Below, in pieces: positions 39,558 to 58,592 of a stretch of DNA of 64,000 nt (positions are counted from its first letter, which is position 1; the number at the start of each line of letters is the position of its first letter). Below the pieces are notes generated by a model. The model ran no database searches. It saw only the letters and a program-made list of their open reading frames with translations, and had not been told where the DNA came from. The translations under genes were made by a program, and so were the position numbers. This DNA comes from Pseudoxanthomonas sp. (GTDB taxonomy: Bacteria; Pseudomonadota; Gammaproteobacteria; Xanthomonadales; Xanthomonadaceae), in contig JAYRTC010000015.1 in the NCBI GenBank assembly GCA_041919795.1, positions 23,721 through 87,720 of the forward strand, written 5' to 3'.

Positions 39558-39580
39558 CTCCAATCGATACGGAACGAGTA

Positions 39581-40726: not shown

Positions 40727-40735
40727 CGGCACTTG

Positions 40736-41443
40736 TCATTCGCTGCGGGCCAGTGCCTGCAGCGAATGAATGCTGTGCTCGTAGAAGGGTTGCGCATAGT
40801 GGTACGGCGCCTTGCCCCAGCGGCGGTCGGGATCGGCAAAGACCGCGACTTCGGGATACTCAATCGTGCGCAGCGACCAGCGTGTATCTACGGCGTCGTA
40901 AAGCTGCTGGAGCATCGCATTGCTGGCACGGATCCAATGCAGGCTCGAAGCGTCGGAACCGTCCAGGAATTTCTCCGCCCAGTACACGTGATTGAATACA
41001 ACTATCGAAGCATCTACTGTCGCGAGGAGTCATTCGAACCCGGCGATCCACTGCGCCAGGAATTCCTCGCTCCTTGGCCCGATCACAGCGTGTTCGCTGG
41101 GCTCGGCGACCACGCTGCGCAGTTCGCCTGAATGAATTAAGAACGAATCGCCCATTGAAAACAGGTTGAAGCGCTCGTCGATGAAGTCGATGAGCAGCAC
41201 GTCGTGCGGCGTCGACGCGATCGCTGACAACGTGCCCTTGTCGAGGCCATTGGCTCCTATGCGCCACTGGAATGGGCTGAGAATATCGACAGCCGCGACA
41301 CACATCTGCGCGTCGTCGACTTTCCGCGTGTCGATGCTCACCATCGAGTTACGTGCAGGGTAATCTGCGATTTCGAACACTCCCGCATGCCGCAGTGCAT
41401 CCCGGGACACTCAACTCCCGAAGATGAAGACTCGTTGCGTCAT
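40736..41443 (-). pseudogene. DUF6270/SGNH-like gene interrupted by two in-frame TGA codons
   Basis: One continuous frame of 236 codons: MTQRVFIFGS-TGA(41411-41413)-VSRDALRH...AQWIAGFE-TGA(41030-41032)-LLATVDASIVVFNHVYWAEKF...ALARSE. The ATGA overlap with the upstream methyltransferase stop supports 41443 as the native start. Confidence 0.6.
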
Positions 41444-42165: not shown

Positions 42166-44553
42166 TCACCATCGCAGATAGACGATTCCTGACACCTTGG
42201 GTGCCTGGGGCCGTAACGCACCAAGCGGCCCGATATTGATGGACACACGAGGAAAGCCGGGCTTCTCGAAATCCAACCGATCCGCATCTCCAGATAATCG
42301 ATGAGCGACGAGCAAAAAGCCCAAGCGACCCATGTCGTTCTTGATTGAAGCGCGCACCTCTTCCTCACCCACATCCCAGTATTCGAGGACCGCCGCCGCC
42401 GGGCCGTGGAGGGAGTCAAGCCCATGCTGAGAGCGCACATGGTATGGAAAGCCCGGATGATAGCCGCCCAAAATAGCAGGCAATAGGCGCGGGGCGAATT
42501 TAGACACGCGCAAAGCCGACATTGCGGTCGCTGCCGAAGGGGTGTCAATCTCGGTTGCCATCGCAGCGCCCGGGTTCAATGCCGCAATCCACCTCCTGGC
42601 CTCGCGATCGGTCAACAGCTTCGTTCCCATTAGCCATGAGCCATCCATGCTCAGGTGTGAACTGTCGTAGTACACCGGCCGACCATCAACATAGGGACTG
42701 CACATGCCGTTGTCGCAAATGAGGTGGCGAATGTCCAGATAGGTCACTTGGTGATCTTGGCGCGCCAGTGATGCCAGATACCGGTTTATATTGCTATCGC
42801 CTTGATCGGCAACGACCAAGTGATCTCCGCAATCAAGACCCCCGATACGCAATCCTCGCAGCTCGCACTTGCGGTTGTAGCCGGCGAAATGCGGTGCTTC
42901 GCCGATAATCACTACGCGGACGCCCTTGGTGGTGAGGGCCGCAATCGTGTCTTGCAAGTCCTTGCGAAAGCCGGCGTTCGCATCGTAGACACTCCACGCA
43001 CCGCTGATGATCACCGTGCGAATCGCACCCGACAGGAGTACCTGCCGCATGTACGGCCGGAACTGGTCACAACCAGCCTTGTAACGCGATCCACCGTAAT
43101 CGCCACCGAACACGGGTGGGCAGGAGGAGTGGGTGGCATTTCGGAATCTGAAGCCATCGCGCTTCGCCAGTTGCCCGATCACGCCGATGTAATGGGCAGC
43201 CTCGGAATCGCCCCACAGCAGCATCCCCGTCGTGACTGCGAGTTCACCCTGCCCAGGCGCCGGAATTATGCATCGTGGGGAGTACAGGATGTTCGGATCG
43301 AACGCCGAGAGTTGGCAATTGTAAGAAAATTCATAGGCGGGGGCAGTGTGCTGCTCCACCAATGCGCGCCCCTCGCGATAGCCAGGAGCCAATTCAATCA
43401 TCGAACGCAGGCCGCCGCTGTACCAAATCGCGCCTGTCATCACGCAGAGCACGGCGCTCGGCGCCGCATACAGCGCGATCGCTTGCTTGAGACGGCCACC
43501 GCGCCAGTGCCGCGCAGGTAATTCGACCCAGCGATAGCTCGCATACGCCAGCGCGAACATCGCTACGATGGCGCCGGCGATCCACGGGCCTTCCACTTCG
43601 CCGAGGAAGTAGCGGAGGAAGGCGAGGATCGGCCAATGCCAGAGGTAGAGCGAATACGAGATCAGGCCAATAAACACCATCGGCCGGGGCGTGAGCACCC
43701 AAGCTACCAAGCGCGAGCTCATCCCGCCGGCCAACATCAGCAGCGCCGCGCCGACGCAGGGATAGATAGCATTGATGCCCGGGAACGTCGAGTTGTCGTC
43801 GAGTGCGTACAACGACCAGGCGATCAATCCGAAGCCCGCAGTGGCAAGGGCTTCCACGGTCACGCGCCACCCATCGCCCGCCGGATCCCGGGGCTTACGC
43901 ATCCATAGCGCAAGCAACGCGCCTACCATCAGCTCGCCCGCACGCGCTGGCAACATGTAGTACGCGAACTTCTGTGCAGAGATACTGGTCATCTCGCCGA
44001 TGGCGAATGATGCCACGCAGATCGCCGCCGCGATGGCCAGTGCCGCGACACGCCGGCTTCGCACCATCGATGCGAGAAGCAGCACGCTCGGCCAGAGGAA
44101 GTAAAACTGTTCTTCCACGCCCAGCGACCAGGTGTGCAGCAGCGGTACTTCACTGGCCGAGTCCGCGAAATAACCAGTGTCGAGGTAACGCCAGAAGTAG
44201 ACATTGGAGAGCGAGAACACTCCCCACAACGCCGATTTTCCAAGTGCGAGCAGTTCTTCCGGCAACAGCAGCAGCGCGCCTGCGACCAAGGTGACCGCAG
44301 TCATCACCAGGAACGCCGGTGCGATGCGCCGGATCCGCCGCAAATAAAACTCGGCGAAGGAGAACCGGCCGTCCTCCATCTCGCTCCAGATGTTGCGGGT
44401 GATTAGATAGCCGGAGATGACAAAAAAGATGTCAACGCCGACGTAGCCCCCCGGCATCCATGCCTTGTTGAGGTGGTAGATGACGACGCTGAGGACGGCG
44501 ACGGCGCGCAGACCATCGATGTCGGGCCGGTAGACGGTCCCGATCTTGCGCAT
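42166..44553 (-). CDS. OafA/YrhL-type acyltransferase-3 with SGNH domain and an extra ~150-aa C-terminal extension
   Basis: RPDIDGLRAVAVLSVVIYH and VDIFFVISGYLIT (AT3). About 10 TM segments. SGNH part (WGDSEAAH...DSSHLS). An alternative start exists at 44625. Confidence 0.85.
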   Translation of the reverse strand: MRKIGTVYRPDIDGLRAVAVLSVVIYHLNKAWMPGGYVGVDIFFVISGYLITRNIWSEMEDGRFSFAEFYLRRIRRIAPAFLVMTAVTLVAGALLLLPEELLALGKSALWGVFSLSNVYFWRYLDTGYFADSASEVPLLHTWSLGVEEQFYFLWPSVLLLASMVRSRRVAALAIAAAICVASFAIGEMTSISAQKFAYYMLPARAGELMVGALLALWMRKPRDPAGDGWRVTVEALATAGFGLIAWSLYALDDNSTFPGINAIYPCVGAALLMLAGGMSSRLVAWVLTPRPMVFIGLISYSLYLWHWPILAFLRYFLGEVEGPWIAGAIVAMFALAYASYRWVELPARHWRGGRLKQAIALYAAPSAVLCVMTGAIWYSGGLRSMIELAPGYREGRALVEQHTAPAYEFSYNCQLSAFDPNILYSPRCIIPAPGQGELAVTTGMLLWGDSEAAHYIGVIGQLAKRDGFRFRNATHSSCPPVFGGDYGGSRYKAGCDQFRPYMRQVLLSGAIRTVIISGAWSVYDANAGFRKDLQDTIAALTTKGVRVVIIGEAPHFAGYNRKCELRGLRIGGLDCGDHLVVADQGDSNINRYLASLARQDHQVTYLDIRHLICDNGMCSPYVDGRPVYYDSSHLSMDGSWLMGTKLLTDREARRWIAALNPGAAMATEIDTPSAATAMSALRVSKFAPRLLPAILGGYHPGFPYHVRSQHGLDSLHGPAAAVLEYWDVGEEEVRASIKNDMGRLGFLLVAHRLSGDADRLDFEKPGFPRVSINIGPLGALRPQAPKVSGIVYLRW

Positions 44554-44638
44554 TGTGGTCGCAACCGAGCCGCGCTCGACATCCGCACCCGCTGGCGCCA
44601 TCACTGCCACCCCTGACATTTCCATGGCCTTCAGGCCA

Positions 44639-45112
44639 TCATTCCTGCCAGACGAAATACACCGTGCCCAGCGAATCGGCGGCGAGCTGCAGCTTGTCAT
44701 TCACCCGAGTGGTCGTCACGGTGATGCGCTTGCCGACGTTGCCGTAGTCGCCAACGAGGTCGTCGCCACGCTCGAACGTCTTGTAGCGCTTGTAGCCCTT
44801 GGCGGCCAGAAGGTCCTCGAGCTGCTTGTCGACACTGCGCGCATCTCCGTCCTTGAACTCGATGACGAGCCTGCGCAGCTTGCCACCGGGCACGTCTTCG
44901 GCCGTACGCGAACGGATCGAGTACTTGAAGGTGGGCACGAAACCCGTCGGGAAGTCGGGGTTGTACGTAGCCGTGGTCGCGCCCTGCAGCGCCGGCGAAT
45001 CGACCGGCGCCGCGGCATTCCCGGCAGCGGTATCGACAGGAGCCTGCTGCGCAGGCTGGTTGCAGGCGACGAGAAGCAGGGCGGCGATACTCAAGCCGAT
45101 GATACGACGCAT
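44639..45112 (-). CDS. Hypothetical lipoprotein within the O-antigen locus
   Basis: MRRIIGLSIAALLLVAC lipobox. No family was recognised. Confidence 0.6.
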   Translation of the reverse strand: MRRIIGLSIAALLLVACNQPAQQAPVDTAAGNAAAPVDSPALQGATTATYNPDFPTGFVPTFKYSIRSRTAEDVPGGKLRRLVIEFKDGDARSVDKQLEDLLAAKGYKRYKTFERGDDLVGDYGNVGKRITVTTTRVNDKLQLAADSLGTVYFVWQE

Positions 45113-45194: not shown

Positions 45195-47141
45195 TCAAAG
45201 AAGATCGCGGAAGATCCGGTCCAGACGGTCCAGGAACAGCTCGACCGAATACTCATGCCCGATGAATTGGCGCCCCTTGCGCGCTCCTTCCTGGAACAGC
45301 GCGTAATCCGCATTGCGCAGGATGTGGTCGCGCATGGCATCCAGCGAGGGGAAGACGAACTCCGCCGGGTAGATGTACTCGACACCCGACCAGTCCAGCA
45401 GCAGCCCCTGCCCGCCCGCCGCGAAACCATCCGACGGCGCGATGTGGAAGCTCTCCGGCAAATGCTCGTCGTCGCTGACGGACAACACGAACCCGGTGTC
45501 GGCCAGGGCCCGGGTCACGTCGACGTAGCCCTTGTAACGCACGTGCTCGCGCAGGCCATGTTGATGGATGTAGTGGTCGCACCGCTGGAAGTACGCCTTC
45601 TCCTCAGGGTCTCGCGAGAGCCACTCCGTATCTGCGGCACTCCTCCCGTAGATCGACAGATTATAGCGGGGATCGAGCTGGACGAGAGAGTGCAACAGCT
45701 GGAGCGCCTTGATCAGCCCCTTGCGCGACGGCACCGAACCGACGAGCGCGAGGTTGAACACGCGCGATGAGTCGTCGATCGAAGCGTAGCCCCCGGAACC
45801 CACGTGATTCGGCAGCAACCGTACCTTGGCCCGATCGAGATTGAAGATCTCGACCAGGCGTTCGAAATAAAGGACGGAAACCGCGATATAGGCATCCACA
45901 TTGTCGTCCTCGACGATGTGGCCAAACTGGCGTGAAAGCTCGAAGCGGTGCGTCCGGACGATGAGCCGCTGGTCCTTGCGCTTGTTGCGCGAATACCAGA
46001 CGGCGTTGCCAAGGAACCATTCGCAGAAGATCAGCTCCGCCCAATCCAGCGCGTCGCGCGAGGTTGCGGCATCGTGCGCGTTGTGGCCTGTCCATTCGTC
46101 CATGCGCACCTGGAATCTGCGCGACAGCGCAGGGACCAGTTTCTCGATGAACTTCAGGTCGTAGCCCGCGATGAGCAGTCGCGGCCTGGCTTCCTCGAAG
46201 AACCCCTCATAATCGTTTTTTCGCAACCGTTCCAACAACGGCGCCAGGCGCACATTCAGGCTATAGGTCGACACCACGCGCCAATGCTCGGACACGAAAT
46301 CCGAGAAGCGCTTGAACAATGCCTCATCGATGTCGCCCCGGTAGTAGCGGATCAATGCCTGTAATACGGTTTGCAGCCCGACCTGGAAACGGATCGCAAC
46401 GTAGGAAATACCCAGATGCGCGAGCTTGCGCTCGGCGGTGGTCCACACCTCGAGGTGGTTTCCCAGTTCGCGGGCGCCGTAGGTTCGCGTCGAAGATGCA
46501 ACGCGCGAGACCGCCTTGTTGTAGACGAATGTCGGATGGTCGATGTAACCGATCCGCTCGCACGCGGTAAGTACGTCGATGAGGAAGACTGTGTCTTCGC
46601 CCATGCGCAGAGCTTCATTCCAGGCGATGCCGTGGCGCAGCAGCAAGTCGCGCTTGATGAGCGAAGGAACGGTCGTGCTCTGCCTTCGCATGATCAACGC
46701 GATACGCTGCTTGTTGTTCCTCGCATCGTTGAATTCGGCGATGCGGTTCATCTCAACCAGCGACGCGCCATCATCGACGACGAGGAAACCGCGGACCAGG
46801 CAGCAACCATTGGCGACGGCATGCGCGTGGTGGACTGACAGCGTGTCTTCGAAGATACGATCGTCGCAATCGAGGAAGAACACGTAGTCGCCGCGCGCTG
46901 ACTGGATGCCGAGGTTGCGAGGATGCGAGGGAGATCCGCTGTTGCGCTCAGTCCGCAGCACTCGCCAATCCGGATGGCTCGCCGCTTCGGCCTCGAGGAA
47001 GGCGTGGGTGCCGTCTTCGGAACAGTCGTCGACGAAGATCACCTCGTACGGGTGCGCGAAATCCTGCGCACGCAACGACGCAATGCAACGTTCGATCTTC
47101 CCGATTGCATTGTGGCAGGGGACGATGACGGAGACTTTCAT
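45195..47141 (-). CDS. Two-domain glycosyltransferase (N-terminal GT2, C-terminal GT-B-like module A)
   Basis: GT2 elements VSVIVPCHN, IFVDDCSEDGT and FLDCDD. The C-terminal ~330 aa are paralogous to the N-terminus of the next gene. Confidence 0.85.
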   Translation of the reverse strand: MKVSVIVPCHNAIGKIERCIASLRAQDFAHPYEVIFVDDCSEDGTHAFLEAEAASHPDWRVLRTERNSGSPSHPRNLGIQSARGDYVFFLDCDDRIFEDTLSVHHAHAVANGCCLVRGFLVVDDGASLVEMNRIAEFNDARNNKQRIALIMRRQSTTVPSLIKRDLLLRHGIAWNEALRMGEDTVFLIDVLTACERIGYIDHPTFVYNKAVSRVASSTRTYGARELGNHLEVWTTAERKLAHLGISYVAIRFQVGLQTVLQALIRYYRGDIDEALFKRFSDFVSEHWRVVSTYSLNVRLAPLLERLRKNDYEGFFEEARPRLLIAGYDLKFIEKLVPALSRRFQVRMDEWTGHNAHDAATSRDALDWAELIFCEWFLGNAVWYSRNKRKDQRLIVRTHRFELSRQFGHIVEDDNVDAYIAVSVLYFERLVEIFNLDRAKVRLLPNHVGSGGYASIDDSSRVFNLALVGSVPSRKGLIKALQLLHSLVQLDPRYNLSIYGRSAADTEWLSRDPEEKAYFQRCDHYIHQHGLREHVRYKGYVDVTRALADTGFVLSVSDDEHLPESFHIAPSDGFAAGGQGLLLDWSGVEYIYPAEFVFPSLDAMRDHILRNADYALFQEGARKGRQFIGHEYSVELFLDRLDRIFRDLL

Positions 47142-47145
47142 CGGT

Positions 47146-49707
47146 TCAAACCGAGTAGAAGCGCGACACGAGGGTCTTGCCGTGGTTCCTGAGCAACAGC
47201 AGGAAGTTACGGCTGTCCGCGATCAGATCTCCTACCTCTCCATCGGATCTGTACTCGTACTTATGTTCCTGGCCCATCGCGATGATGGCGTCGCCTGAGT
47301 AGCTCGCATGCAGGAAGGCGTTGGCGATGTAATCCGGCGCCACCGTGCGGGTCTGGTCGACCAGGGCGAAATGGCTCGTCTTGATCGCCGCAGCGGGCCT
47401 CTCCGCGTAGCGTTCCAGGCAACTCCAGGACAGCACCGCCACCCCGAGACGATTGTATTGCTCGTAATAATGCGCAACTTCGATCTCGGGGATGGAATCA
47501 GCGAGTACGAGCAGCAGGCCTGCTTTCGGTATCGACGGCGCCTGTCTGTTGAAGTACGCGATGGCGGCCTGCGCCGATGAACGAGAATCCACGATGCAAA
47601 TGACAGTCAACTGCTCCCCACGGTCCACGAAGGGGATGTCGACGGCGCGCAGGATCGTCTTGAAGCGCTCCTTGTAAGTGTGGTTGGCGAGCACATTGTT
47701 CAGCGCGCGTGCGCGCATGTCGTCGATCTCTCCGGGCAGCAACTTGGCCAGCGCGCCCGGATCGCGATCGAGAAATACGACGGTGTCGCCGAACATCCGC
47801 TCCATGCCGACCGAATGGTTCGACAGGCACAGCGTGTTGCACGACATTAGCTCGAACACGCGACGCGCAAACATCGTCGGTGACTGCGTCTCGGTATTGA
47901 GGTTCAAACCGAAGAAACTCGACTTGTAGACCTTGTCGATTTCCGAATGCGGCACGGCCGGGCGAGTGTACTGCCTGTATTCTTCCGGGAACAAGTGATT
48001 CGGGTCGTCGTCACCGAAGAAGCGATCGTAGATCACCAAGCTTCGGCCGCTCGCGATCACCTCATCGAAGATCTGCCGCATGACCGCGCTTCTGTCGAGG
48101 TGGTAGGCATACCAACTGCCGGCAAATACCACGTCATCGCTGCGTTCTCCTGCCTCGACTGGATTGAAGATCCGGGGATTGGACGCGAACGGCAGGCAGT
48201 AGGCATGCTTCACGCCGTGGTCCTGTTTGTAGCGTTCGACGCACTCCGCGTCGGTGGTAAACACCACATCGAAACGCTTCGCAGTGTCGACGAAATTATG
48301 GATCTCGTCTTCGTAGTGGGATGGATCTTCCTTGTTCCAGAATACCGTCGGGATGCGATGCTCCCTGCAATACTCGAGAATCTCGAGTAGCTCACCGCGA
48401 TTTTCGTTCCTGAAGTTCGCACTCGTGTAGACGCGCCCCTTCCACGGACGTCGCACCGAATCCACGCCCGACCACGCCGATTCGCAGAAGAACAGATCCG
48501 GCTTGTCGCGCTCGAACAGCATGCGCCAGTTGTCCGGCTCGATGACGATCGGTCGAAACTCATCCTTGAAGCTGTTGTAGGTGAACTCGTCGCACAACAG
48601 CGCGACCCTGAGTTCCGATAGCTCCTTCGCGCCGATGCGCTCCTCGCGCCGATGCGGGCGCGGCGCGGTCATGTACGCGCGCATTTCCGTCGAAGGCATA
48701 CGACCCGTTCCGGATGCGGGCGTGCGCAGCAACTCATCCCACCGCCCGATCACCGCCTCGATGCCGTAACGGGCGCGCACGCCCTCGCGGATCGCGCCGA
48801 TGCGATCGCCAGCCTCGTTCTTCAGCACCGACTCGATCTGGTCGGCGGCCTCTACCGCCGAGTGCACCAAGGCCAATTCCGGGTAGATCTCCTCCGCGCC
48901 TTCCCAGCGCCACACGACCGGTAGCGCACCCGATGCCGCGCCCTCGGCCACCGCCATGTGGAAACTTTCGAAATCGGATGGCGACATGATCGATCCGACC
49001 AAGCGCAGCCAGTGCTGCACGTCGTTGGCCGGCGGGTCGAAGATCACGCGGTGGCGCAGGTTCTGGTTGCCATTGATGCGGCGATACAGCGCCTCGTAGT
49101 ACGCGCGCTCGTCCGGACGTTCCCACAACCATTCGTACGCCGCCGGATTTTCGCCCTTCACTCGTAGCGTGTAGCGGTCGTCGCGCCCGGCGAGCACCTC
49201 CAGCACGTCCAGCGCGCGGTCCAACCGCTTGCGCGATGGCGCGGTGCCGATCATGCCCATGGTGAACTCGGCACTGTCCAGCTTGCCGAGCGCGTAGCGC
49301 TCGCAATCCACGAAATTACCAAGGACGCAACAAATGTCCGGCGGAATCGCAAACTTCTCCACGCACTCGCGCAGGATGTGCGGACCCACGAACACCACCT
49401 GTTCGACGTTGGCCCAGTCAATTTGCGCAGGGTATGCGGTCCCGCGTTCCTGCAGATGCAGTCGGATGACCAGCTTCTGGTGCGGCAGCTTGTTGCGCGA
49501 GCAGAAGACCGCGTTGCCCAACGCCCATTCGGCGACGACGACGTCGGCCCAAGCCATTACCGATAAGGTGCGCTCGCGATCATGGACATCATGGTTCTCC
49601 CATTCGTCCTCGCGGAATTCGTAATGGCCAGTTTGCTCGAGCTGCACCTGGATAGCGTGCCAGAACTTCAGGTCGTGGCCGATGACTGCTACACGGATCT
49701 TGCGCAC
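47146..49707 (-). CDS. Three-module glycosyltransferase (module A, CgeB/DUF3880-like GT module B, C-terminal module C)
   Basis: 853 aa. aa 1-300 resemble the C-terminal half of the 45195..47141 product. aa ~365-690 carry FCESAWSG...PTVFWNKEDP...FAGSWY...MFARRVFELMSCNT (CgeB-like). Confidence 0.8.
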   Translation of the reverse strand: MRKIRVAVIGHDLKFWHAIQVQLEQTGHYEFREDEWENHDVHDRERTLSVMAWADVVVAEWALGNAVFCSRNKLPHQKLVIRLHLQERGTAYPAQIDWANVEQVVFVGPHILRECVEKFAIPPDICCVLGNFVDCERYALGKLDSAEFTMGMIGTAPSRKRLDRALDVLEVLAGRDDRYTLRVKGENPAAYEWLWERPDERAYYEALYRRINGNQNLRHRVIFDPPANDVQHWLRLVGSIMSPSDFESFHMAVAEGAASGALPVVWRWEGAEEIYPELALVHSAVEAADQIESVLKNEAGDRIGAIREGVRARYGIEAVIGRWDELLRTPASGTGRMPSTEMRAYMTAPRPHRREERIGAKELSELRVALLCDEFTYNSFKDEFRPIVIEPDNWRMLFERDKPDLFFCESAWSGVDSVRRPWKGRVYTSANFRNENRGELLEILEYCREHRIPTVFWNKEDPSHYEDEIHNFVDTAKRFDVVFTTDAECVERYKQDHGVKHAYCLPFASNPRIFNPVEAGERSDDVVFAGSWYAYHLDRSAVMRQIFDEVIASGRSLVIYDRFFGDDDPNHLFPEEYRQYTRPAVPHSEIDKVYKSSFFGLNLNTETQSPTMFARRVFELMSCNTLCLSNHSVGMERMFGDTVVFLDRDPGALAKLLPGEIDDMRARALNNVLANHTYKERFKTILRAVDIPFVDRGEQLTVICIVDSRSSAQAAIAYFNRQAPSIPKAGLLLVLADSIPEIEVAHYYEQYNRLGVAVLSWSCLERYAERPAAAIKTSHFALVDQTRTVAPDYIANAFLHASYSGDAIIAMGQEHKYEYRSDGEVGDLIADSRNFLLLLRNHGKTLVSRFYSV

Positions 49708-49715
49708 CGTTCCCC

Positions 49716-52700
49716 CTAGACTTCGATCTTCTGCAGCAGCGCATCGCGATCATCCTGCGCATCCACTGCGGCGAAATTCGCCGAGTCGGATGCGTAGGCC
49801 TTCGATGCGAAGGCCGGCGCAAGGCCGCCCTGCGCATCCAGCAATCCGCCAGCTTTCGTGCCTGCGGTACGCATTGCGGCCGTGTTGATGACCAACGTAC
49901 GCGAATCCAGCGTCCGCCCCCATTCGTACTCTGCGCCATCGACGGCCTTGCCGACGACCAGTGCACCGCTGTAGCGGACGGCGTGCACCGCATCCTGCAG
50001 ATAATGGCGACCGTATACCGCACGCGGCGACAGTAGGGCGACCACCGCGTCGGGGACGGATTCGCGCTCCCAGTCGATAAGTTGCGTAAGCGGCACCTGC
50101 GTGTCAGGTATCGTGCGCACATCGGGCCATTGGCCGTCAAAGCGGAAGCCGTTGCGGCACACGAGTAGCAGCTGCCTGCGGATATCGTCGGTGGTCTGCT
50201 GTCGCCCGAACGTGGCGAACGCCGCCTCCGCCTCCGCCTGGTCGGCGATCTCTGCGATCGCGATCAGCCGCAGGCCGCTTCCCTCTCGCTCGCCCATCAA
50301 CGACAGGATCCTTCCGAAACGATGGCGGTACGTATGCCGGGCGAGTACCGCACGGATGCCAGCGAGGCTGCGCCGCCGCCATTCCAGTGGATCGGTGGTG
50401 AGCACGCGTAGGGCGGCCTCGGCCTCGTCCTGACTCCTCACCTGCCAGACGATGTCGTCGCCGAATGTCTCGGCTATACCGTGTGACCATGTGCTCACGA
50501 CAGGCGTGCCGCAAGCCAGCAACTCGAACACGCGGCGCGAGAACATCGTGGACGAATCGTCTACCGAATTGACGTTGAGGAACACTTGGTACTCGCGGTA
50601 CTTTCTCGAGAGCGCGTCGTAGTCGAGCCGGCCGCGGATGTATGGCGCGTAGTCTTGAGGGAACGCGAACTCGCTGCGCGCGCCGACGTCGCGATGGTTG
50701 CGATCGTAGATATCAAGGTCGTATGCCTTCGCCGCTTCGAGCAGCATCGACTGTCCGCTCTTGCGGGCTTCGAAACCTTCCGTGTAATAGCTTCCGGCGA
50801 AGCATACCTTGCCGTTCCGGCGAGAGGATCCCTGCGGATTTTGCAGACTGTCCTCGGCGGCGAACTGCATCACCTCCACGCGCGCAGAGGTCTTCAGCCG
50901 ATACCTATCGATCGATTCCGCGGATGTCGTCAGGACCACGTCGCACCGGCTGGCGGACTCGATGAACGCATCGAAGTGAACGGGATCTTCCTTGTTCCAG
51001 AAGATCGTCGGCACGCCGCGGCTGCGGAACCCTTCGACCATATTCGCGAATTCATCGCCCGGCGGGTGCTCGGCACTGGCTACGCGGTAGCGCCACGTCC
51101 CGCGATTACCGCGCCAGGCCGACTCGGCCAGAAGGAAGCGCGGCGAGAACCTTTCGAGCAGACCTTCCCAGTTGTCGGGGCGGGTTTCGATCAGGTTCGC
51201 ATGTGGCGCGAAGCAGGCGCGTGAGAACTCATCCAGCACGCTCATGACTGGGATCGAACCATGAGGGCTCTCTTGTTCCCATCCGATCACCGCCAACTTT
51301 TTTTTTTGCTCCTCGTTGCGGGACAACGGATCTTCGTGTTTGTCCGACTTGCCTGGTGCGGCGGCACCACCCGACTTCGCGGTGGGCTTGGGTTTGGGTA
51401 GCGGAGGCAGCACGAGTTGCGCCATCGGCAGCGTTCCGTCCCGTCGCCGCTGGTACATGCGTACAACCCGCGCCACCGCGCGCGGGAATCCAATGATTCC
51501 GCGTACGCTGCCTAGCCCCAGCATCGCACGCCCGATCGCCAGCGCGATCGAATGCTCGTAGCGCTGGCTCTCCTCGTGCAGGCTCTGCGCGAGCGCGATC
51601 AACGCCTTCGAGCGCGCCTGTTCGGCCTCGAGCTTTGCCCAGTGCCCGGAACGCTTTTCCTGCGCCTCGGCGAGCTCTGCCGTCATCTTGCGAATGCGGA
51701 CATTCATTTCGTCCGCCGCAGTCTGCAATTCCTGCGCGCGCGCGCGCGCGGCGCCGAGCGATTCGTTGAAAGCGCGCGAACGAGTGCCGTCGGCGTCGTG
51801 CAAGGCCTTGACTTCGTCTTGCAGCGCCTGCGCGCGGTCGGTGGCGATGCGCTCTGCGGCTTGCGCGCTGGCCGTGTCGACCTGCAACGTGGCCAGCTGC
51901 TGCATCAGCGCGTCGACACGTCGCGAATGCGTGTCGACGAGCGACTCCTGCATGCGTATCCGCTCCGAGTGGTCGTCGCGCAGCGCGTTGACACGCTCCA
52001 TGTGGTCCTCTCGCAGCGTGCGCAAAGCCTGGGCGTGCTCCTCTCGTTGCGCATGCAGGGCCTGGGCGTGCTCCTCTTTTTTCGTGCGCAGGGCTTCGGC
52101 GTGTTCGGTACCGCTGTCGGCCGCAGCAAGGCGTGCGTTATCGAATGCGGCCTGCAGGCTGCTGGCGCGTTCCGCACCAAGCGCCAGAGAGAGCTCGAGC
52201 TCGCCTTGGCGCGCGACCAGCGCAGCCTTTTCGCCGCGCATTCCTTTCAGGGTGTGCTCAAGCGCGCCCCGCGCCTTCGCATTCTCCTGCGCGGCGGAAT
52301 TCGCCGCGTAGTAGCTTGTTTGCGCATCGATGGCGCCGGTTTCGGTGACGCGCAGCAACATGTCCATGTCGTCGCCCACAGGTTCGTCGGCGGCGCGGCG
52401 GTCAGCGACCACGCGGATGTAGCCGTCGGTAACTGCGATGGTCTGCAGCATGAACCCATCGACGATCGCTTCATGCAGGTGGCGGGGGAAGATCGACGAT
52501 TTGTGATCCGGCCATGGATGCAGGCCGTAGGGCACGGTGATGATGATGCGTCCACCAGGCGCGACGTGCGCGGCACCCTGGCGGATGAAGCGCACGGGGT
52601 TGGTCTGGTGTTCAACAACCTCGCCCATGACTACGGTGTCGTACTGGCCCTCTCCTAGCGCGGCGAGTTCGCCACAACGGAATTCCAGACGCTGCTGGAC

Positions 52701-52979
52701 CGACGCGATCTCCTTCGCGCGCTCCGCCATGGCGTACTCGATCGCGGGCGGATAGATGTCCAGTCCCGTCACGACCAAGCCCTCGCGAGCCATCAGGATC
52801 GCGGCAATGCCCTGGCTGCAGCCAATGTCGAGCACGGTCGAGCCACGCGCGTTAGCGCACATCCAGTTGATCCGATCGCGCGTCTTCTGCCCAAAGGCAG
52901 CACCCATTGCATCGTAATAGGCCTCGTTGATGCGATCTGCCAACGGATTGGTGGCGTCATGGTCGTCATGCATGGTCAT
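49716..52979 (-). CDS. Methyltransferase / long coiled-coil / CgeB-like glycosyltransferase fusion protein (1087 aa)
   Basis: SAM motif I VLDIGCSQG (aa ~49-56). aa ~225-480 are Ala/Glu/Arg/Gln/Leu-rich helical sequence with 11-residue repeats. Lys/Pro linker. aa ~575-895 are paralogous to module B of the 47146..49707 product (AESAWRG...PTIFWNKEDP...FAGSYY...MFSRRVFELLACGT). Confidence 0.8.
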   Translation of the reverse strand: MTMHDDHDATNPLADRINEAYYDAMGAAFGQKTRDRINWMCANARGSTVLDIGCSQGIAAILMAREGLVVTGLDIYPPAIEYAMAERAKEIASVQQRLEFRCGELAALGEGQYDTVVMGEVVEHQTNPVRFIRQGAAHVAPGGRIIITVPYGLHPWPDHKSSIFPRHLHEAIVDGFMLQTIAVTDGYIRVVADRRAADEPVGDDMDMLLRVTETGAIDAQTSYYAANSAAQENAKARGALEHTLKGMRGEKAALVARQGELELSLALGAERASSLQAAFDNARLAAADSGTEHAEALRTKKEEHAQALHAQREEHAQALRTLREDHMERVNALRDDHSERIRMQESLVDTHSRRVDALMQQLATLQVDTASAQAAERIATDRAQALQDEVKALHDADGTRSRAFNESLGAARARAQELQTAADEMNVRIRKMTAELAEAQEKRSGHWAKLEAEQARSKALIALAQSLHEESQRYEHSIALAIGRAMLGLGSVRGIIGFPRAVARVVRMYQRRRDGTLPMAQLVLPPLPKPKPTAKSGGAAAPGKSDKHEDPLSRNEEQKKKLAVIGWEQESPHGSIPVMSVLDEFSRACFAPHANLIETRPDNWEGLLERFSPRFLLAESAWRGNRGTWRYRVASAEHPPGDEFANMVEGFRSRGVPTIFWNKEDPVHFDAFIESASRCDVVLTTSAESIDRYRLKTSARVEVMQFAAEDSLQNPQGSSRRNGKVCFAGSYYTEGFEARKSGQSMLLEAAKAYDLDIYDRNHRDVGARSEFAFPQDYAPYIRGRLDYDALSRKYREYQVFLNVNSVDDSSTMFSRRVFELLACGTPVVSTWSHGIAETFGDDIVWQVRSQDEAEAALRVLTTDPLEWRRRSLAGIRAVLARHTYRHRFGRILSLMGEREGSGLRLIAIAEIADQAEAEAAFATFGRQQTTDDIRRQLLLVCRNGFRFDGQWPDVRTIPDTQVPLTQLIDWERESVPDAVVALLSPRAVYGRHYLQDAVHAVRYSGALVVGKAVDGAEYEWGRTLDSRTLVINTAAMRTAGTKAGGLLDAQGGLAPAFASKAYASDSANFAAVDAQDDRDALLQKIEV

Positions 52980-52990: not shown

Positions 52991-54265
52991 TCAGGGCGAC
53001 TTGGAGTTCCAGAATCCGGTAGCGTCGATTACCGTCTTGCCCACGGGGCGCGCGACACTGCGGAACGCAGAGTGGCTGACGAGCATGACGACCACGTCGG
53101 CGGCGTCCACCGTCGATTCCAGGGGGCCGAACACGATGTCATCGTACGACTCATGCGCCTCGCCCGAATGCCCGATCGTGTTGGCGAACGGGTCGATGCA
53201 GGTCACGCGGCCCGGGTAGCGCGCGGTGATAGCGCGTGCGATCTGCAACGACGGGCTTTCGCGGAAGTCGTCCACATCCGGCTTGTAGGTCAGGCCCAAG
53301 CACGCGATGCGCGGCTGCGACACGGCGGCCGCAGCCACGGCGTGTGCGACTTGCTCGAGCACGTAGGCAGGCTTGGTGTCGTTGACCTCGCGCGCGGTGC
53401 GGATCAAGCGCGCCCGTTCGGGCGCGCCGGAAACAATGAACCATGGATCCACCGCGATGCAGTGGCCGCCAACACCAGGACCCGGCGCCAGAATGTTGAC
53501 CCGGGGATGGTGATTAGCCAATTCGATGACGCGCCATGCGTCCATTCCCGCATCACCGCAGATCATCGACAGTTCATTTGCGAAGGCGATGTTCACGTCG
53601 CGGAACGCGTTTTCGGCGAGCTTGCACAGCTCTGCGGTGCGATCATCCGCCTTCAGGCACGCGCCCTTTACGAATGCCCCGTATAGCCCGGCAGCAGCAT
53701 CCGAGCATTTCTGCGACATGCCACCGATGATCCGATCATTCTCGACCAATTCGGTCAGCATGCGCCCGGGAATGATCCGTTCGGGGCAATATGCGAGATG
53801 GATATCCGCATCCGCCACGCCATCTAGCGGGAAGCGCAGATCGGGCCTTAGCTTGGCAAGAGTCCGCGCCAACTCCTTGGTCGTCCCGACCGGCGAAGTT
53901 GATTCGAGGACTATCAGGTTACCCGGACGAAGAACCGGGGCCAAAGCTCGCCCGACCGCCTCGACATAACTCGTATCGGGAGCCTTGCTGTCGTGATCCA
54001 CCGGCGTCGGAACCGCAATTATGAACGCATCAGCCGGCTCAGGACTCATGGTTGCGCGCAAGCTGCCATTGGCGACCGCTGCTTCGACGAGCTCCCCGAG
54101 CATGGGCTCAACGATGTGAGTACGTCCACTGTTGATGGTGTCGACCGCGTGCTGATTGACATCTACGCCAATGACACGCTTTCCACACGTCGCGAACATG
54201 GTCGCGGTAGGAAGTCCGATATAGCCCAAGCCGATGACCGATACGGTATCGAATGACTGCTCCAT
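52991..54265 (-). CDS. wecC: UDP-N-acetyl-D-mannosamine dehydrogenase (nucleotide-sugar dehydrogenase)
   Basis: VSVIGLGYIGLPTA Rossmann motif, catalytic GGHCI. Collinear with WecC/Cap5O-type enzymes. Confidence 0.88.
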   Translation of the reverse strand: MEQSFDTVSVIGLGYIGLPTATMFATCGKRVIGVDVNQHAVDTINSGRTHIVEPMLGELVEAAVANGSLRATMSPEPADAFIIAVPTPVDHDSKAPDTSYVEAVGRALAPVLRPGNLIVLESTSPVGTTKELARTLAKLRPDLRFPLDGVADADIHLAYCPERIIPGRMLTELVENDRIIGGMSQKCSDAAAGLYGAFVKGACLKADDRTAELCKLAENAFRDVNIAFANELSMICGDAGMDAWRVIELANHHPRVNILAPGPGVGGHCIAVDPWFIVSGAPERARLIRTAREVNDTKPAYVLEQVAHAVAAAAVSQPRIACLGLTYKPDVDDFRESPSLQIARAITARYPGRVTCIDPFANTIGHSGEAHESYDDIVFGPLESTVDAADVVVMLVSHSAFRSVARPVGKTVIDATGFWNSKSP

Positions 54266-54417: not shown

Positions 54418-55194
54418 TCACGCCGCCGGCGCTACACTCGGCGGAGCGGGGGCACGGAGCAGGTCGGCGTATTCCTGCAACACGTCATCTACGGTCCCCA
54501 GCGCGCGCAACCGCCCCGCCTCGATAAGCATGGCGCGGTTACACACGCTACGCAACAAGTGCGCGCTATGGCTTGCAAGAACCACAATCTTCGCGTTCTC
54601 CACCCGCGACTTGAGCCGCTCAGTCGCCTTCTCGACGAAAGCGCTGTCCCCAGTGCCGATCCATTCGTCCATGATGAGGATCTCGTGCTGTACTGCCGTG
54701 GCAAGCGCAAACCCGAGACGCATTTTTTGTCCCGCCGACAGCGTGCGCAACCGATGGCCCGATTTCTCCTGGAGCTCGGCGAAATCGAGTACTTCGTCAA
54801 TTACCGCGGCTGCCTGGGCCGGGCGCAGGCCCATCGCGATTCCCCGCAGGAGGATATTCTCGACTAACGTCGCCTCATGATTGAAGCCAAGCGAGATATT
54901 AAGCAATGCTTGACGCGTACCTTTCACCTCAAGGATTCCGCGGCTGGGTGGATATGCTCCAATCAATACTTTCAGCAGTGTCGACTTGCCGGCACCATTG
55001 CGCCCTACAACCGCTACCCGCTCACCTGCCAGAATCTCGAAACTGATGTCATCAAGTGTGGTCCGCAGCTCCCTGCGCGGCGGATTGAATGCTGCGCGCA
55101 GCAGTACACCTAGACCCGCGCGAATGCTCCTTTGGCCCTGGGTATAGATGGGCAGGTCCAGGCCAATTCCATCCGCTCGCAAAAAGCTGCTCAT
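54418..55194 (-). CDS. wzt: O-antigen/polysaccharide ABC exporter ATP-binding protein Wzt (short form, no C-terminal carbohydrate-binding domain)
   Basis: Walker A GRNGAGKST, signature LSAGQKMR, Walker B ILIMDEW. Only 258 aa. Confidence 0.88.
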   Translation of the reverse strand: MSSFLRADGIGLDLPIYTQGQRSIRAGLGVLLRAAFNPPRRELRTTLDDISFEILAGERVAVVGRNGAGKSTLLKVLIGAYPPSRGILEVKGTRQALLNISLGFNHEATLVENILLRGIAMGLRPAQAAAVIDEVLDFAELQEKSGHRLRTLSAGQKMRLGFALATAVQHEILIMDEWIGTGDSAFVEKATERLKSRVENAKIVVLASHSAHLLRSVCNRAMLIEAGRLRALGTVDDVLQEYADLLRAPAPPSVAPAA

Positions 55195-55197: not shown

Positions 55198-55989
55198 TCA
55201 GATCCAGATAGGAACGAAGCGCGCGTAACGCCGATAGACCCAACTGGCCAGCAACCAGCCCCCCGCGGTCATTACACCAAGATAAGTCGGGGTCAGGCGT
55301 CCAACGGGTTCGCTCAGCAGCGGCGCACGCACCACCTCCACCAAGTGGAACAGGGGGTTGAGGCGGGCAATGAAACCTTGCAGGGTGTTGATCGGCACCT
55401 GATCTGCGCGCCACAGGATCGGTGTGAACAGGAAGCTCACCATCATGATGCTGCCGATAAGCTCATTCACGTCCGGCAACCTCGCGCCAAGAACAGCGAC
55501 GACCGTACCCATCCACGCTACGTTGACAAGCACTACGAGCAGCGCAGGCCATATGGTTACGAGGCCGAACAGATCAAAATCGGGGCTGATATACAGCGCA
55601 ACGGCGATAACAGGCACCGCGATGAAGAAGTAAAACAAAGCTTTTGCAATGACCCGTAGTACGTAATCGGTAAACCGCACTCGACCATCCTGGATAAACC
55701 CGGCATGGCTGTTGAACGTGCTGGTGCACTCGCTCAACGACACGGTTACGAGCCGGTAAACCACGTAGCCGATTCCCAAGTGCGCGATAATTCTAGCTGG
55801 CGGTTGTTGGCCTATCTGTGCATAGAACGCACCGATACCGAACGCGTAGAGGATTGGTGGAACGATGGCCCATATCAACCCAAGCCGTGACCGGCGATAC
55901 TTGCTCAGCAGGTCCAGCCACATCGCATACATCCAGAAACTTGGGTTTTTCAGGCTGTCCCGGTAATCCTTCCACAAAGAATGTTGCAT
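55198..55989 (-). CDS. wzm: O-antigen/polysaccharide ABC-2 type exporter permease Wzm
   Basis: 263 aa with 6 TM segments. Start region KNPSFWMYAMWLDLLSKYRRSRLGLIWAIV is typical of ABC-2 permeases. 3 nt upstream of wzt. Confidence 0.88.
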   Translation of the reverse strand: MQHSLWKDYRDSLKNPSFWMYAMWLDLLSKYRRSRLGLIWAIVPPILYAFGIGAFYAQIGQQPPARIIAHLGIGYVVYRLVTVSLSECTSTFNSHAGFIQDGRVRFTDYVLRVIAKALFYFFIAVPVIAVALYISPDFDLFGLVTIWPALLVVLVNVAWMGTVVAVLGARLPDVNELIGSIMMVSFLFTPILWRADQVPINTLQGFIARLNPLFHLVEVVRAPLLSEPVGRLTPTYLGVMTAGGWLLASWVYRRYARFVPIWI

Positions 55990-57251: not shown

Positions 57252-58592
57252 TTAACAAATACCTCGTGATACGGCTTCATTCAGCATCATTTCGAGCCTG
57301 GCTGCGGCGGCGCTCCAGCTCCAGGGCGCGACGCTGTCCGCAGATACGTCCAAACCTGCATGGAGTCCGCCAGACTCATGCTGGAGCCGAAGGCTAGTCA
57401 ACGCGTTGACGATGCCTTCCCGGGTTCCCGGAATCGACCAGCCGCGTTGCAGCTTTCCTAAAAGCGCACTGGCGGCGTCCTGGTCGACGGCTCGCACGTG
57501 CAGGATCGGGCGGCCGGCCCCGAAATATTCATAGAATTTCCCGGGAACCTGGGCCGGGTCCTGGTTGGCGAGATTGACCAGCACGTCGGCTTTGCGCTGC
57601 AGATCCAGCAGTTGGCGATGCGGCACGCACCCCAGTAGCCGCAGCTGGTCCGGATATGCGATAGCTTCGGCCAACAGCCAGTCGGGGAGATTGGCCGATG
57701 CTATGCTCAGCCGGATCCCGGGAATGGCAAGCACCGCCTTCACCAGCATTGACGGGTCCCGGAAGCTGTAGAAGCTGCCGGAGTACAGCAGTTCCAACGG
57801 CGCTTTCGCATCACCAGCTTGGTGAGGCTGTGCGGGAACCCGTTCGTCGAAACCCTGCTCAAGCACCGTCATGGGCGCTCCCGTCCGGTAACGACCTCTC
57901 AATCTCTCTGCTGTCTTCAGCGTCGTCACCAGCACTTGGTCGGCCCGACGTAGAGTTGCTTCCTCCAGCTTCCCTGCTCGCCGCTGCCAGCGCGGAGGCG
58001 TATAGACCGCCAATACCGGGTCACCCAGATCGGCTACCCACGGATATCCTGATGCCTTGGCGACCAAACCGACCTGTAGGGTAGTCGCCGGTTCGTGCGA
58101 AGAGACGACCACGTCAGGACCGATCTGATCCAGCAATCCCGGCAACGCCCGTAATGCGGGCCCCAGCCATTCGCCGCGCAGGTCCGGGAAAATCACCCAG
58201 GACACTGCTTTCCGGAATCGCTCCACCAAGCGACCTTTCCAATTCAGACGAAGCGGCGCGGGCGCTATCGCGGTAGCCGGTACGATCGACCGCGCAGCTT
58301 GCTCAGCCGCAGGCAGCACAGGCCGCCGCGATACCAGCCAGTCCAGAAACGCACGGATCGGACCGGGATTCACGCGGTGAATCCGCATTCCCGGCCATGG
58401 ATCCGGCAATCCTGCGAACGTGCCGGAAATATCCGGAGCCATGACATGGACTTCATGGCCAAGCTCAGCCAGTCTCCCGCTCAGATAGGCCCAGCGAAGT
58501 GATTGCGGCGATGGGCTCGGCGGATATTCATAGGCGATCACCAGGATCCGCAGCTTGCGAATGCTGTTTTCTAACCTCTCCGTCGTGATCAC
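57252..58592 (-). CDS. GT-B fold glycosyltransferase (GT4-like)
   Basis: N-terminus RILVIAYEYPPSPSPQSLR. C-terminal nucleotide-sugar-binding half with EYFGAGRPIL. The GTG start overlaps the cbs stop (GTGA). Confidence 0.78.
   Translation of the reverse strand: MITTERLENSIRKLRILVIAYEYPPSPSPQSLRWAYLSGRLAELGHEVHVMAPDISGTFAGLPDPWPGMRIHRVNPGPIRAFLDWLVSRRPVLPAAEQAARSIVPATAIAPAPLRLNWKGRLVERFRKAVSWVIFPDLRGEWLGPALRALPGLLDQIGPDVVVSSHEPATTLQVGLVAKASGYPWVADLGDPVLAVYTPPRWQRRAGKLEEATLRRADQVLVTTLKTAERLRGRYRTGAPMTVLEQGFDERVPAQPHQAGDAKAPLELLYSGSFYSFRDPSMLVKAVLAIPGIRLSIASANLPDWLLAEAIAYPDQLRLLGCVPHRQLLDLQRKADVLVNLANQDPAQVPGKFYEYFGAGRPILHVRAVDQDAASALLGKLQRGWSIPGTREGIVNALTSLRLQHESGGLHAGLDVSADSVAPWSWSAAAARLEMMLNEAVSRGIC

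Follow-up and report, generated by a model that had tools for sequence, protein, structure and literature searches.

Proteins that join a chain terminator to other parts of an ABC-transporter-dependent glycan pathway have been described in several bacteria. WbdD has a methyltransferase (MT) at its N terminus, followed by a coiled-coil ruler and then by a region for membrane association and polymerase recruitment at the C terminus, and the separate polymerase WbdA is recruited non-covalently. WbdD caps are methyl in Escherichia coli O8 and Klebsiella pneumoniae O5 and methyl-phosphate in E. coli O9a and K. pneumoniae O3. In WbbB of K. pneumoniae O12 and Raoultella terrigena, a terminator, a coiled-coil ruler and polymerising glycosyltransferases (GTs) are on a single chain. 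In K. pneumoniae O7 ORF6, which has been biochemically characterised, a central coiled coil connects a methyltransferase(-kinase) at the N terminus to two polymerising GTs at the C terminus (Kelly et al. 2024, PMC11231755). The WsaE protein of Geobacillus stearothermophilus NRS 2004/3a contains an N-terminal 2-O-methyl capping MT and two rhamnosyltransferases (PMC2943079). The CPA loci ('TET operon') of Pseudomonas syringae encode O-methyltransferases and GTs in split and fused forms (PMC7820976), and an MT and a coiled coil are combined in a protein of E. coli O101/O162 (PMC13168486).

Here we describe a gene of this kind in a 64,000-nucleotide stretch of DNA from Pseudoxanthomonas sp. (the window, meaning the whole stretch that was analysed). 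The gene has an ATG start and its features are listed in Table 1. A sequence-only reading of the window had given its coordinates exactly but had overlooked that it lies on the minus strand; a plus-strand reading of 49716-52979 was rejected, as the translation is full of stops and contains no ORF. The 1087-aa ORF is not a chance one, because its homologues are 42-77% identical over the full length. The nearest named relative is from Lysobacter cavernae (74% identity), and its locus is fully syntenic. The protein is uncharacterised and its family is abundant in databases, where the present labels of its members are just 'glycosyltransferase' or 'CgeB'. From the N terminus on, an MT is followed by a 271-residue helix and an amphipathic helix, and then, after a disordered linker, by a GT-B module and a GT-A-like domain. 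All four parts that the sequence-only reading had proposed for the polypeptide (MT, helical stretch, linker and GT region) were found.

Table 1. Features of the 1087-aa protein and its locus, with positions in the window
Feature	Residues	Position	Strand	Evidence
Whole gene: 1087-aa MT/coiled coil/amphipathic helix/linker/GT-B/GT-A-like protein		49716..52979	-	ORF list and translation
Class I SAM-dependent MT head, candidate capping enzyme	17-194	52398..52931	-	Pfam, invariant motifs, AlphaFold, Foldseek
Coiled-coil rod, ~271 aa, ~40 nm if extended, candidate ruler	205-475	51555..52367	-	AF2, periodicity, indels
Five tandem 11-residue (hendecad) repeats	289-343	51951..52115	-	TRF; copy number differs in relatives
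Cationic amphipathic helix, predicted membrane anchor, GT-proximal end of coil	491-513	51441..51509	-	Moment, charge, conservation
Disordered Pro/Lys-rich linker, joint of terminator part and GT part	514-553	51321..51440	-	AlphaFold; split-gene boundary
GT-B module, CgeB-like (PF13524), candidate polymerising GT	554-895	50295..51320	-	Pfam, AlphaFold, Foldseek, paralogy
C-terminal GT-A-like domain	896-1087	49719..50294	-	AF2 and Foldseek fold match
wzm		55198-55989	-	Pfam ABC2_membrane
wzt, 258 aa, without C-terminal carbohydrate-binding module		54418-55194	-	Pfam ABC_tran
UDP-ManNAc dehydrogenase (WecC-like), 11 bp upstream of 1087-aa gene		52991..54265	-	NCBIfam NF008286
853-aa three-module GT, downstream, same operon		47146-49707	-	Pfam; paralogy to 1087-aa protein
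648-aa GT2+GT1 protein, downstream, same operon		45195-47141	-	Pfam
AT3-SGNH O-acyltransferase		42166-44700	-	Pfam
Stand-alone class I MT		41440-42138	-	Pfam
wecB		39554-40726	+	Pfam

The N-terminal head has a Rossmann-like fold, a glycine-rich motif I (VLDIGCSQG) and an acidic residue after beta-2, and is a class I MT. The Pfam profiles Methyltransf_23, 11, 12, 25 and 31 all scored above cut-off over residues 42-155, and L50, D51, G53, C54, G57 and D74 were invariant among 44 homologues. AlphaFold gave a pLDDT >90 throughout the domain. Foldseek matched the 1087-aa protein to many class I MTs with probability 1.00, and the Foldseek and PDB matches of the head included the sugar O-MTs RebM and AtmM. 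The earlier assignment to the class I SAM-dependent MTs, made from the VLDIGCSQG motif, was thus borne out. A WbdD-type methyl cap chemistry had also been proposed, but an MT of the WbdD type was rejected. In a PDB profile search the head matched UbiG at E 1e-14, with WbdD far behind as a weak, generic class I match at E 2e-6, and WbdD chains reached E 1e-3 in a single-sequence search. The idea of a kinase between MT and coil was rejected as well, because the MT ends at about residue 194 and the coil starts at residue 205, so that only residues 195-204 would be available. In sequence, the head most closely resembles small-molecule O-MTs such as UbiG. Whether the protein or the family profile was the query, PDB searches returned relatives of the MT domain only; the coil, GT and C-terminal parts had no match, and WbbB chains were absent from the matches. 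When the MT head alone was used as query, the homologues recovered were just five short fragments.

AlphaFold modelled the coil as one helix (205-322 and 326-475) interrupted by a single 3-residue break, with a low pLDDT of 47-70 in the monomer. The region is nearly free of Pro and Gly, consists to 65-75% of A/E/R/Q/L/K/D, and has a weak SMC coiled-coil match over residues 221-473. Single-sequence, per-window Fourier analysis was noisy (mixed periods of 3.5, 3.6 and 3.67), so a family-averaged spectrum was used instead, in which the hydrophobic periodicity peaked at 3.52 residues in the coil and at 3.60 in the GT domain. Model, composition, SMC match and periodicity agree with the helical stretch of about 250 residues that had been noted before. 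The hendecad blocks of the sequence-only reading are real but local, and the coil as a whole is heptad-based. TRF detected tandem repetition at 52002-52103 (33-bp period, 3.1 copies), which matches the hendecad repeats. There are five of these repeats in the window compared with three and about two in the nearest relatives, and in this region the L. cavernae protein is shorter by 36 residues and another relative (P0003) by 2 x 11.

Nearly all length variation in the family falls in the coil, the other domains being near-constant. Among the 44 homologues, the coil segment varied from 79 to 308 aa (SD 57). The MT head was mostly 209-224 aa long (two shorter outliers had 176 and 186 aa), the GT module was 328-335 aa, and the 78-aa segment that contains the coil end and the amphipathic helix had an identical length in 40 of the 44. 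Of the 24 coil indels between relatives with an identity of at least 70%, 10 were multiples of 7 (binomial P = 0.001). Single coil indels of 28, 35 and 36 residues were found in pairs that were 92%, 89% and 75% identical, respectively, the first two at positions 461 and 281. The indels among close relatives keep the register of the coil, being multiples of 7 or of 11.

The amphipathic helix is conserved in the family and has a hydrophobic moment of 0.69-0.72, a mean hydrophobicity near 0 and a net charge of +4 or +5. The linker behind it is Lys/Pro-rich, as had been described, and is disordered, with a pLDDT of ~36 and without secondary structure in the AlphaFold model. In Neobacillus (L080), Sediminibacillus (L040) and Polyangiales (L006), the MT, coil and amphipathic helix form a separate protein with the exact layout of WbdD. 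This protein is encoded directly upstream of a homologous GT in L080 and L040, while in L006 the two ORFs are ~4 kb apart. The amphipathic helix is the extreme C terminus of the split proteins, and the gene boundary of the split versions maps to the linker region. As gene fusion or fission (Rosetta stone) evidence, the split versions support a putative terminator/ruler role. Other relatives have the same coil-helix-GT chassis with a different head, which is an FkbM-type MT with a weak match to Vibrio cholerae RfbT in L007 and L067, and a different class I MT in L013.

The GT-B module scored 65.2 bits against Glyco_trans_1_2 (PF13524; cut-off 25) and was modelled with a pLDDT >90, and its Foldseek matches were the GT-B enzymes SenB and BshA (8rz3, 3mbo). 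It shares 33% identity (E 5e-49) with the adjacent 853-aa GT over residues 368-722 of the latter. Of the earlier label CgeB/DUF3880-like, the CgeB part stood, whereas DUF3880 was below threshold in the 1087-aa protein and was reached by the neighbouring GT (27.2 bits vs 25.2). The C-terminal domain (~185 aa) was modelled and searched separately; full-length Foldseek results were dominated by MT matches. Its AF2 pLDDT was 94.5, and it matched chondroitin synthase, SpsA, RmlT, TarP and WrtF (TMq 0.42-0.61, E 1e-5 to 1e-4). By eye, not by computed alignment, SPR seems to occupy the place where DXD would be expected. D996 does not vary within the family, yet it is Asn in the paralogous neighbour GT. 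The profile of the domain matches this neighbour at residues 694-825, confirming that the two proteins have a C-terminal module in common, as had been suggested. A search of the literature for CgeB-like ManNAcA transferases that have been characterised found nothing directly relevant.

The gene lies in a probable O-antigen gene cluster of Lysobacter type and is part of a tight minus-strand operon, wzm-wzt-wecC-1087-aa gene-GT-GT, flanked by metB and etfA, with gaps of 8 and 4 bp at the two downstream GT genes. The WecC-like protein scored 586 bits against its NCBIfam profile (cut-off 459). The metB-etfA interval is a known variable LPS locus of xanthomonads (PMC2238763). Its metB side, beside wzm/wzt, is also the cluster site in relatives from Lysobacter, Noviluteimonas and Stenotrophomonas, while etfA on the far side was found in the window and in L002 only. 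The Wzt of the window consists of the NBD only, and the Wzt ORFs beside fused MT-coil-GT genes are at most 329 aa long; the best NCBIfam match of Wzm and Wzt is the galactan type, which has no carbohydrate-binding module (CBM). In every characterised terminated O-polysaccharide system Wzt has a CBM (PMC11231755). The CBM-less Wzt, here and in the relatives, is the one real departure from the characterised terminator systems. The sequence-only reading had overlooked both the missing CBM of Wzt and the second, stand-alone MT of the locus.

Compared with the described systems, the protein is likened, by description, to ORF6 (PMC11231755), which has the same single-chain terminator-coil-GT plan in a wzm/wzt O-antigen locus with further polymerase GTs on separate proteins. 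ORF6 differs in having a kinase, a CBM-like Ig domain, a methyl-phosphate cap and two GT2 rhamnosyltransferases, whereas the 1087-aa protein has neither kinase nor CBM, its GT modules are GT-B (CgeB-like) and GT-A-like, and an amphipathic helix lies between coil and GTs. It resembles WbdD in the order of its terminator part, but its GT is covalently tethered, and WbdD systems have a CBM on Wzt. The arrangement on one chain is also that of WbbB, which has a GT99 beta-Kdo transferase as terminator, GT102 and GT103 modules, and a Kdo-binding CBM on Wzt. WsaE likewise belongs to an ABC-transporter glycan pathway and joins an N-terminal MT for a pure methyl cap to polymerising GTs, but with rhamnosyltransferases as the GTs and an S-layer glycan rhamnan as the target. 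The fused P. syringae genes and the E. coli O101/O162 protein, likened by architecture, are predicted pure-methyl terminators in wzm/wzt loci with other GT and sugar contexts (D-rhamnan; GlcNAc/GalNAc), and the P. syringae Wzt has a cap-binding C-terminal domain that the window Wzt lacks. The layout had been thought undescribed, but ORF6, WsaE and the P. syringae fused MT-GT genes are precedents. The terminator-polymerase design has therefore already been described in other bacteria and is no new principle.

We consider the 1087-aa protein to be probably a fusion of a WbdD-like chain terminator and ruler with one part of the polymerase that makes O-antigen in an ABC-transporter-dependent pathway. 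The heptad coiled coil of ~270 residues would oligomerise in parallel into a rod of ~40 nm, and the cationic amphipathic helix would anchor its C-terminal end at the inner membrane, on the cytoplasmic side. Through the 40-residue flexible linker, the GT-B module and the GT-A-like one would be tethered at the membrane, where they and the downstream paralogous GTs would extend an undecaprenyl-linked O-polysaccharide that probably contains ManNAcA. The MT at the far end of the rod would O-methylate the non-reducing end only once the chain is long enough, and this methylation would block further extension. Because only long chains would reach the MT, the modal chain length would be set by the length of the rod. 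Wzm/Wzt would then export the finished chain, probably without a gate that depends on recognition of the cap, since Wzt lacks a CBM. [quoted passage not shown] A built-in terminator and ruler, as the sequence-only reading had suggested, is thus the best-supported function that we infer, and it is strengthened by the length variation confined to the coil, the register-preserving indels, the membrane-binding helix at the GT-proximal end, and the split and head-swapped versions. The absence of a CBM from Wzt in the window and in related loci is evidence against it, as are the closer resemblance of the head to small-molecule O-MTs such as UbiG than to WbdD, and the break and low pLDDT of the coil in the monomer model. 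Moreover, the fused head would not have to be the source of a glycan methyl group, as the locus has a stand-alone second MT. More tentatively, and with some doubt on our part, the family might represent a cap-and-ruler system without a cap-reading CBM, in which termination and length control are uncoupled from export gating. Its modular chassis of coiled coil, amphipathic helix and tethered GT-B/GT-A-like polymerase for a ManNAcA-type glycan might have repeatedly recruited unrelated MT heads in Gram-negative and Gram-positive phyla, with the rod retuned by tandem heptad or hendecad duplications.

The lack of a CBM would also fit a different function, which we regard as unlikely, in which the MT decorates internal residues (one methyl per repeat) or a precursor, the coil is a scaffold or oligomerisation element, and length follows from the stoichiometry of transporter and polymerase, as it does in Klebsiella O2a. 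The transporter best matches the O2a/galactan type, export is coupled to elongation in O2a-type systems, which lack a terminator, and the coiled-coil protein of known systems has been called a scaffold for complex assembly (PMC11231755). However, an enzyme up to ~40 nm away from the GTs would be badly placed to methylate each new repeat, a task for which the stand-alone MT is already available. A mere scaffold would not explain why the coil length is hypervariable while the register is kept, or why unrelated MT heads were recruited repeatedly to the distal end.

Less probable still is that the coil is not extended but folds back, for example as an antiparallel hairpin, so that the MT lies near the membrane and the GTs and may cap the chain without measuring it. 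The break at 323-325 in the AlphaFold monomer would give arms of 118 and 150 residues at low pLDDT, and the hendecad expansion is right at this break, where a tip would tolerate changes in length. Coiled-coil monomer models, however, often kink artefactually, and the 28- and 35-residue indels in close relatives would unpair the arms. In the split homologues the MT is the extreme N-terminal part and the amphipathic helix the extreme C-terminal part, as in WbdD, which oligomerises via a parallel trimeric C-terminal helical bundle. It is very improbable that the cluster makes another ABC-exported glycan (a capsule-like or teichuronic-acid-like ManNAcA polymer) and not LPS O-antigen, with a role of the protein specific to that polymer. 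Although the GT chassis occurs together with wecB/wecC in many phyla, including LPS-less Gram-positives (Listeria, Bacillus), the cluster is at the canonical xanthomonad LPS locus, on the metB side and beside wzm/wzt, and another product would leave the mechanism unchanged.

If the terminator/ruler reading is right, the near-identical loci that differ by 28-36 coil residues would be a natural experiment on the ruler, with predicted steps in modal chain length of ~4-5 nm. In E. coli O9a uncapped chains are not exported, whereas in a CBM-less system an MT-dead mutant should export over-long chains. Proteins of this family could be flagged in annotation as candidate terminator-polymerase fusions, and the 'made-to-measure' glycan paradigm would extend past the Enterobacteriaceae to the Lysobacteraceae/Xanthomonadales and to many other phyla.

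The gene under study is an uninterrupted 1087-codon ORF with its ATG at 52979. The sequence-only reading had placed a single polypeptide here; the ORF and its proposed parts are present, but they lie on the minus strand, and translation of the plus strand over the same interval gave stops throughout. Pfam class I SAM-methyltransferase families matched residues 42-155 and Glyco_trans_1_2 (PF13524) matched residues 767-892 (65 bits; cut-off 25), while NCBIfam gave a weak SMC coiled-coil match at residues 221-473. Full-length homologues with 42-77% identity were found in Lysobacter, Noviluteimonas, Pseudoxanthomonas, Stenotrophomonas, and many metagenomes. Given the open frame, the domain matches, and these homologues, this is a real gene.

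An AlphaFold2 model was built from the alignment of 44 homologues (mean pLDDT 81), and segment lengths were compared across the 44 proteins (see the table). The long helix has the pLDDT commonly seen when a coiled coil is modelled as a single chain. In Foldseek searches against PDB, the methyltransferase (MT) head resembled class I methyltransferases including the sugar O-methyltransferases RebM and AtmM, and the first glycosyltransferase (GT) module resembled the GT-B enzymes SenB and BshA. The C-terminal domain, which reached a pLDDT of 94.5 when modelled alone, resembled in Foldseek the GT-A enzymes chondroitin synthase, SpsA, RmlT, TarP/TarS, and WrtF (TMq 0.42-0.61). It is small, and by eye the usual DXD position seems to be 'SPR'. 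Residues 368-722 of the adjoining 853-aa GT share 33% identity with the GT-B module (E 5e-49), and the profile of the C-terminal domain also matched that protein, which bears out the earlier proposal of a module shared with the neighboring GT. A helix at residues 491-513 (SVRGIIGFPRAVARVVRMYQRRR), conserved throughout the family, is cationic and strongly amphipathic, with a hydrophobic moment of ~0.7 and a net charge of +4/+5; we read it as a predicted membrane anchor.

Features of the window locus, of the 1087-residue protein and of related loci, with segment lengths across 44 proteins
Feature	Location	pLDDT	Segment length
Gene for the MT-coiled coil-GT protein	49716-52979 (-)		
33-bp tandem repeat	52002-52103		
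wzt (258 aa)	54418-55194 (-)		
Stand-alone class I MT (232 aa)	41440-42138 (-)		
GT4-family GT (446 aa)	57252-58592 (-)		
Cystathionine beta-synthase gene	58589-59959		
132-aa ORF	40733-41131 (+)		
775-aa protein gene	32707-35034 (-)		
MT domain (head)	residues 17-194	>90	mostly 209-224 aa; two outliers, 176 and 186
Essentially continuous helix	residues 205-322 and 326-475	47-70	
Coil, variable part			79-308 aa (SD 57)
Coil-end/amphipathic-helix segment			78 aa in 40/44
Two short helices	residues 478-513	~80	
Pro/Lys-rich disordered linker	residues 514-553	~36	
Alpha/beta domain (GT-B module)	residues 554-895	>90	328-335 aa
Second alpha/beta domain, C-terminal	residues 903-1087	>90	~200 aa
GT orthologues without coil	L040:11152-14667, L080:11757-14783, L010:9218-11593, L015:8300-11548, L004:9380-11629		
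398-aa MT-coil ORF	L032:9992-12860		
1710-aa relatives	L011:9926-15058, L016:9926-15055		

At E of 1e-30 or better the family comprises 2,938 clusters (50% identity), and at least 28 of the top 150 clusters matched over the whole profile, MT through GT. Scanning one genome per species yielded 80 loci. The MT-coil stands as a protein of its own in Neobacillus cucumis (L080), Sediminibacillus albus (L040), and a Polyangiales MAG (L006), and there finishes in a cationic amphipathic helix, which is the layout of WbdD, the Escherichia coli terminator and ruler. Its gene is directly upstream of the homologous GT in L080 and L040, and about 4 kb away from the GT ORF in L006. Given the WbdD layout of these split forms, the window protein has the appearance of a WbdD-type terminator joined through the Pro/Lys linker to a polymerase GT. 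The MT head is generic. Its best match in sequence searches was UbiG, and WbdD reached only E 2e-6, which would count against the terminator reading.

Unrelated heads also occur. L007 (Pistricoccus) and L067 (Cupriavidus) carry an FkbM-type MT on the same coil-helix-linker-GT chassis, and the L067 head also weakly matched Vibrio cholerae RfbT, the terminal O-methyltransferase of the Ogawa serotype. Another class I MT is present in L013 and, judging by sequence inspection, in L009 and L014 too, and some loci have a headless chassis. Repeated recruitment of methyltransferases to the distal end of the coil is what a capping role would predict.

Other relatives differ in architecture. The GT orthologues without a coil instead have N-terminal beta-rich repeats of ~100-130 aa, in up to four or more copies, for which Pfam gave no match; they might be carbohydrate-binding modules replacing the coil/terminator arrangement. 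The MT-coil ORF of an Anaerolineales MAG (L032) has a Cys/Arg-rich, non-protein-like tail and lies just before the GT ORF, and it probably reflects a fused gene disrupted by a frameshift or by misassembly, not a true split. In Ochrobactrum teleogrylli (L011) and Brucella haematophila (L016), the 1710-aa relatives adjoin wecB/wecC and have an MT, a long spacer, a CgeB-like GT, and an extra C-terminal GT1 on one chain; a larger share of the polymerase is joined together here than in the window protein.

The transporter raises a difficulty for a capping role. Kelly et al. noted that every terminated O-polysaccharide example has a carbohydrate-binding module (CBM) on Wzt reading the cap, and assigned transporters without a CBM (O1/O2) to systems that lack ruler control (PMC11231755). 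The window Wzt consists of the NBD only. CBM-less Wzt was found in essentially all loci with the fused form (L001, L002, L003, L019, L020, L022, L033, and L035 as well as the window), where the ORFs are about 255-310 aa and at most 329 aa. Thus, either the cap goes unread by the transporter here, or the MT does not act as a terminator. The Wzt/TagH-like ORFs of the split-form Firmicute loci L040 and L080 are 540-546 aa. Moreover, the stand-alone MT in the window O-antigen locus, 87.5% conserved in the syntenic Lysobacter cavernae locus (L001), could perform in-chain methylation or be the true source of any methyl group, which makes it harder to assign a cap to the fused MT.

The coil behaves as a ruler might. 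In the family average, the coil region had its strongest hydrophobic periodicity at 3.52 residues (power 0.69, median 0.14). For the GT domain the peak was at 3.60, and for the MT and C-terminal domains it fell at unrelated values. Length variation across the 44 proteins was restricted to the coil. Of the 24 coil indels between proteins sharing at least 70% identity, 10 have lengths exactly divisible by 7 (binomial P = 0.001), and some others measure 11 or 36 residues. Proteins with 92%, 89%, and 75% identity differ by one indel of 28, 35, and 36 residues, respectively. The window protein has five tandem 11-residue repeats (residues 289-343), corresponding to the 33-bp repeat, while its close homologue P0003 has three copies and L. 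cavernae ~2. The periodicity, the coil-only variation, the register-keeping indels, and the tandem hendecads indicate that selection keeps the rod a coiled coil while its length changes in quantised steps. Together with the modelled helix (205-475), they confirm the ~250-residue helical stretch as a coiled coil. If extended, 271 residues would span ~40 nm, and the family ~19-53 nm. The helix may instead fold as a hairpin at residues 323-325, where the monomer model is interrupted, but the split homologues, and the large single indels at other coil positions, favor an extended parallel rod.

The minus-strand operon is tight, with intergenic gaps of 11, 8, and 4 bp. Its locus runs metB, wzm, wzt, wecC (UDP-ManNAc dehydrogenase), the target, the 853-aa GT, and a GT2+GT1 protein, followed by an AT3-SGNH acyltransferase, the stand-alone MT, wecB (opposite strand), and etfA and etfB. 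The target thus sits, as had been suggested, in a hypervariable hotspot, the metB-etfA LPS locus of xanthomonads and Stenotrophomonas (PMC2238763). G+C is 0.58-0.64 in the locus and 0.65-0.68 in the flanks, and the L. cavernae locus is fully syntenic. Since the GT chassis accompanies wecB/wecC across phyla, the polymer likely contains ManNAcA. The GT4-family gene, inserted between metB and the cystathionine beta-synthase gene and thus beyond the wzm end of the LPS locus, could encode an adaptor or initiating GT. Pfam matched nothing in the 132-aa ORF that lies between wecB and the stand-alone MT, and this ORF may be spurious or a small locus component. The 775-aa protein has reprolysin-like metallopeptidase domains, FG-GAP repeats, and a TcdB-toxin mid/N-like stretch; its location in the lowest-GC stretch (0.58) on that side of the window points to a secreted protease or toxin-like protein gained by horizontal transfer.

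The layout had been thought undescribed, but this does not hold. In Klebsiella pneumoniae O7 ORF6, which has been biochemically characterised, an MT(-kinase) at the N-terminus is followed by a central coiled coil and by two polymerising GTs at the C-terminus, and one more GT is encoded separately (PMC11231755); by description ORF6 shares the single chain of MT, coiled coil, and GTs with the window protein. Geobacillus stearothermophilus WsaE, in which a 2-O-methyl capping MT is joined to two rhamnosyltransferases (PMC2943079), likewise has MT and GTs on one chain, and Pseudomonas syringae CPA loci contain both split and fused MT-GT genes (PMC7820976). Terminators with a methyltransferase only are represented by E. 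coli O8 WbdD and by the O101 MT, a predicted methyl-only coiled-coil terminator (PMC13168486), and the Whitfield group regards the coiled-coil strategy as widespread (PMC11231755). The design is therefore already known. Unlike O7 ORF6, the window protein has an MT-only head, without a kinase and without a CBM. Particular to it are the pair of GT-B (CgeB-like) and GT-A-like domains, the predicted internal amphipathic anchor at the fusion joint, and, in its locus, a transporter that lacks a CBM. We consider its reading as a terminator and ruler plausible, now better supported, and moderately probable on the comparative evidence. What is notable about the system is its CBM-less transporter, a clean natural series of coil lengths, and modular head-swapping.
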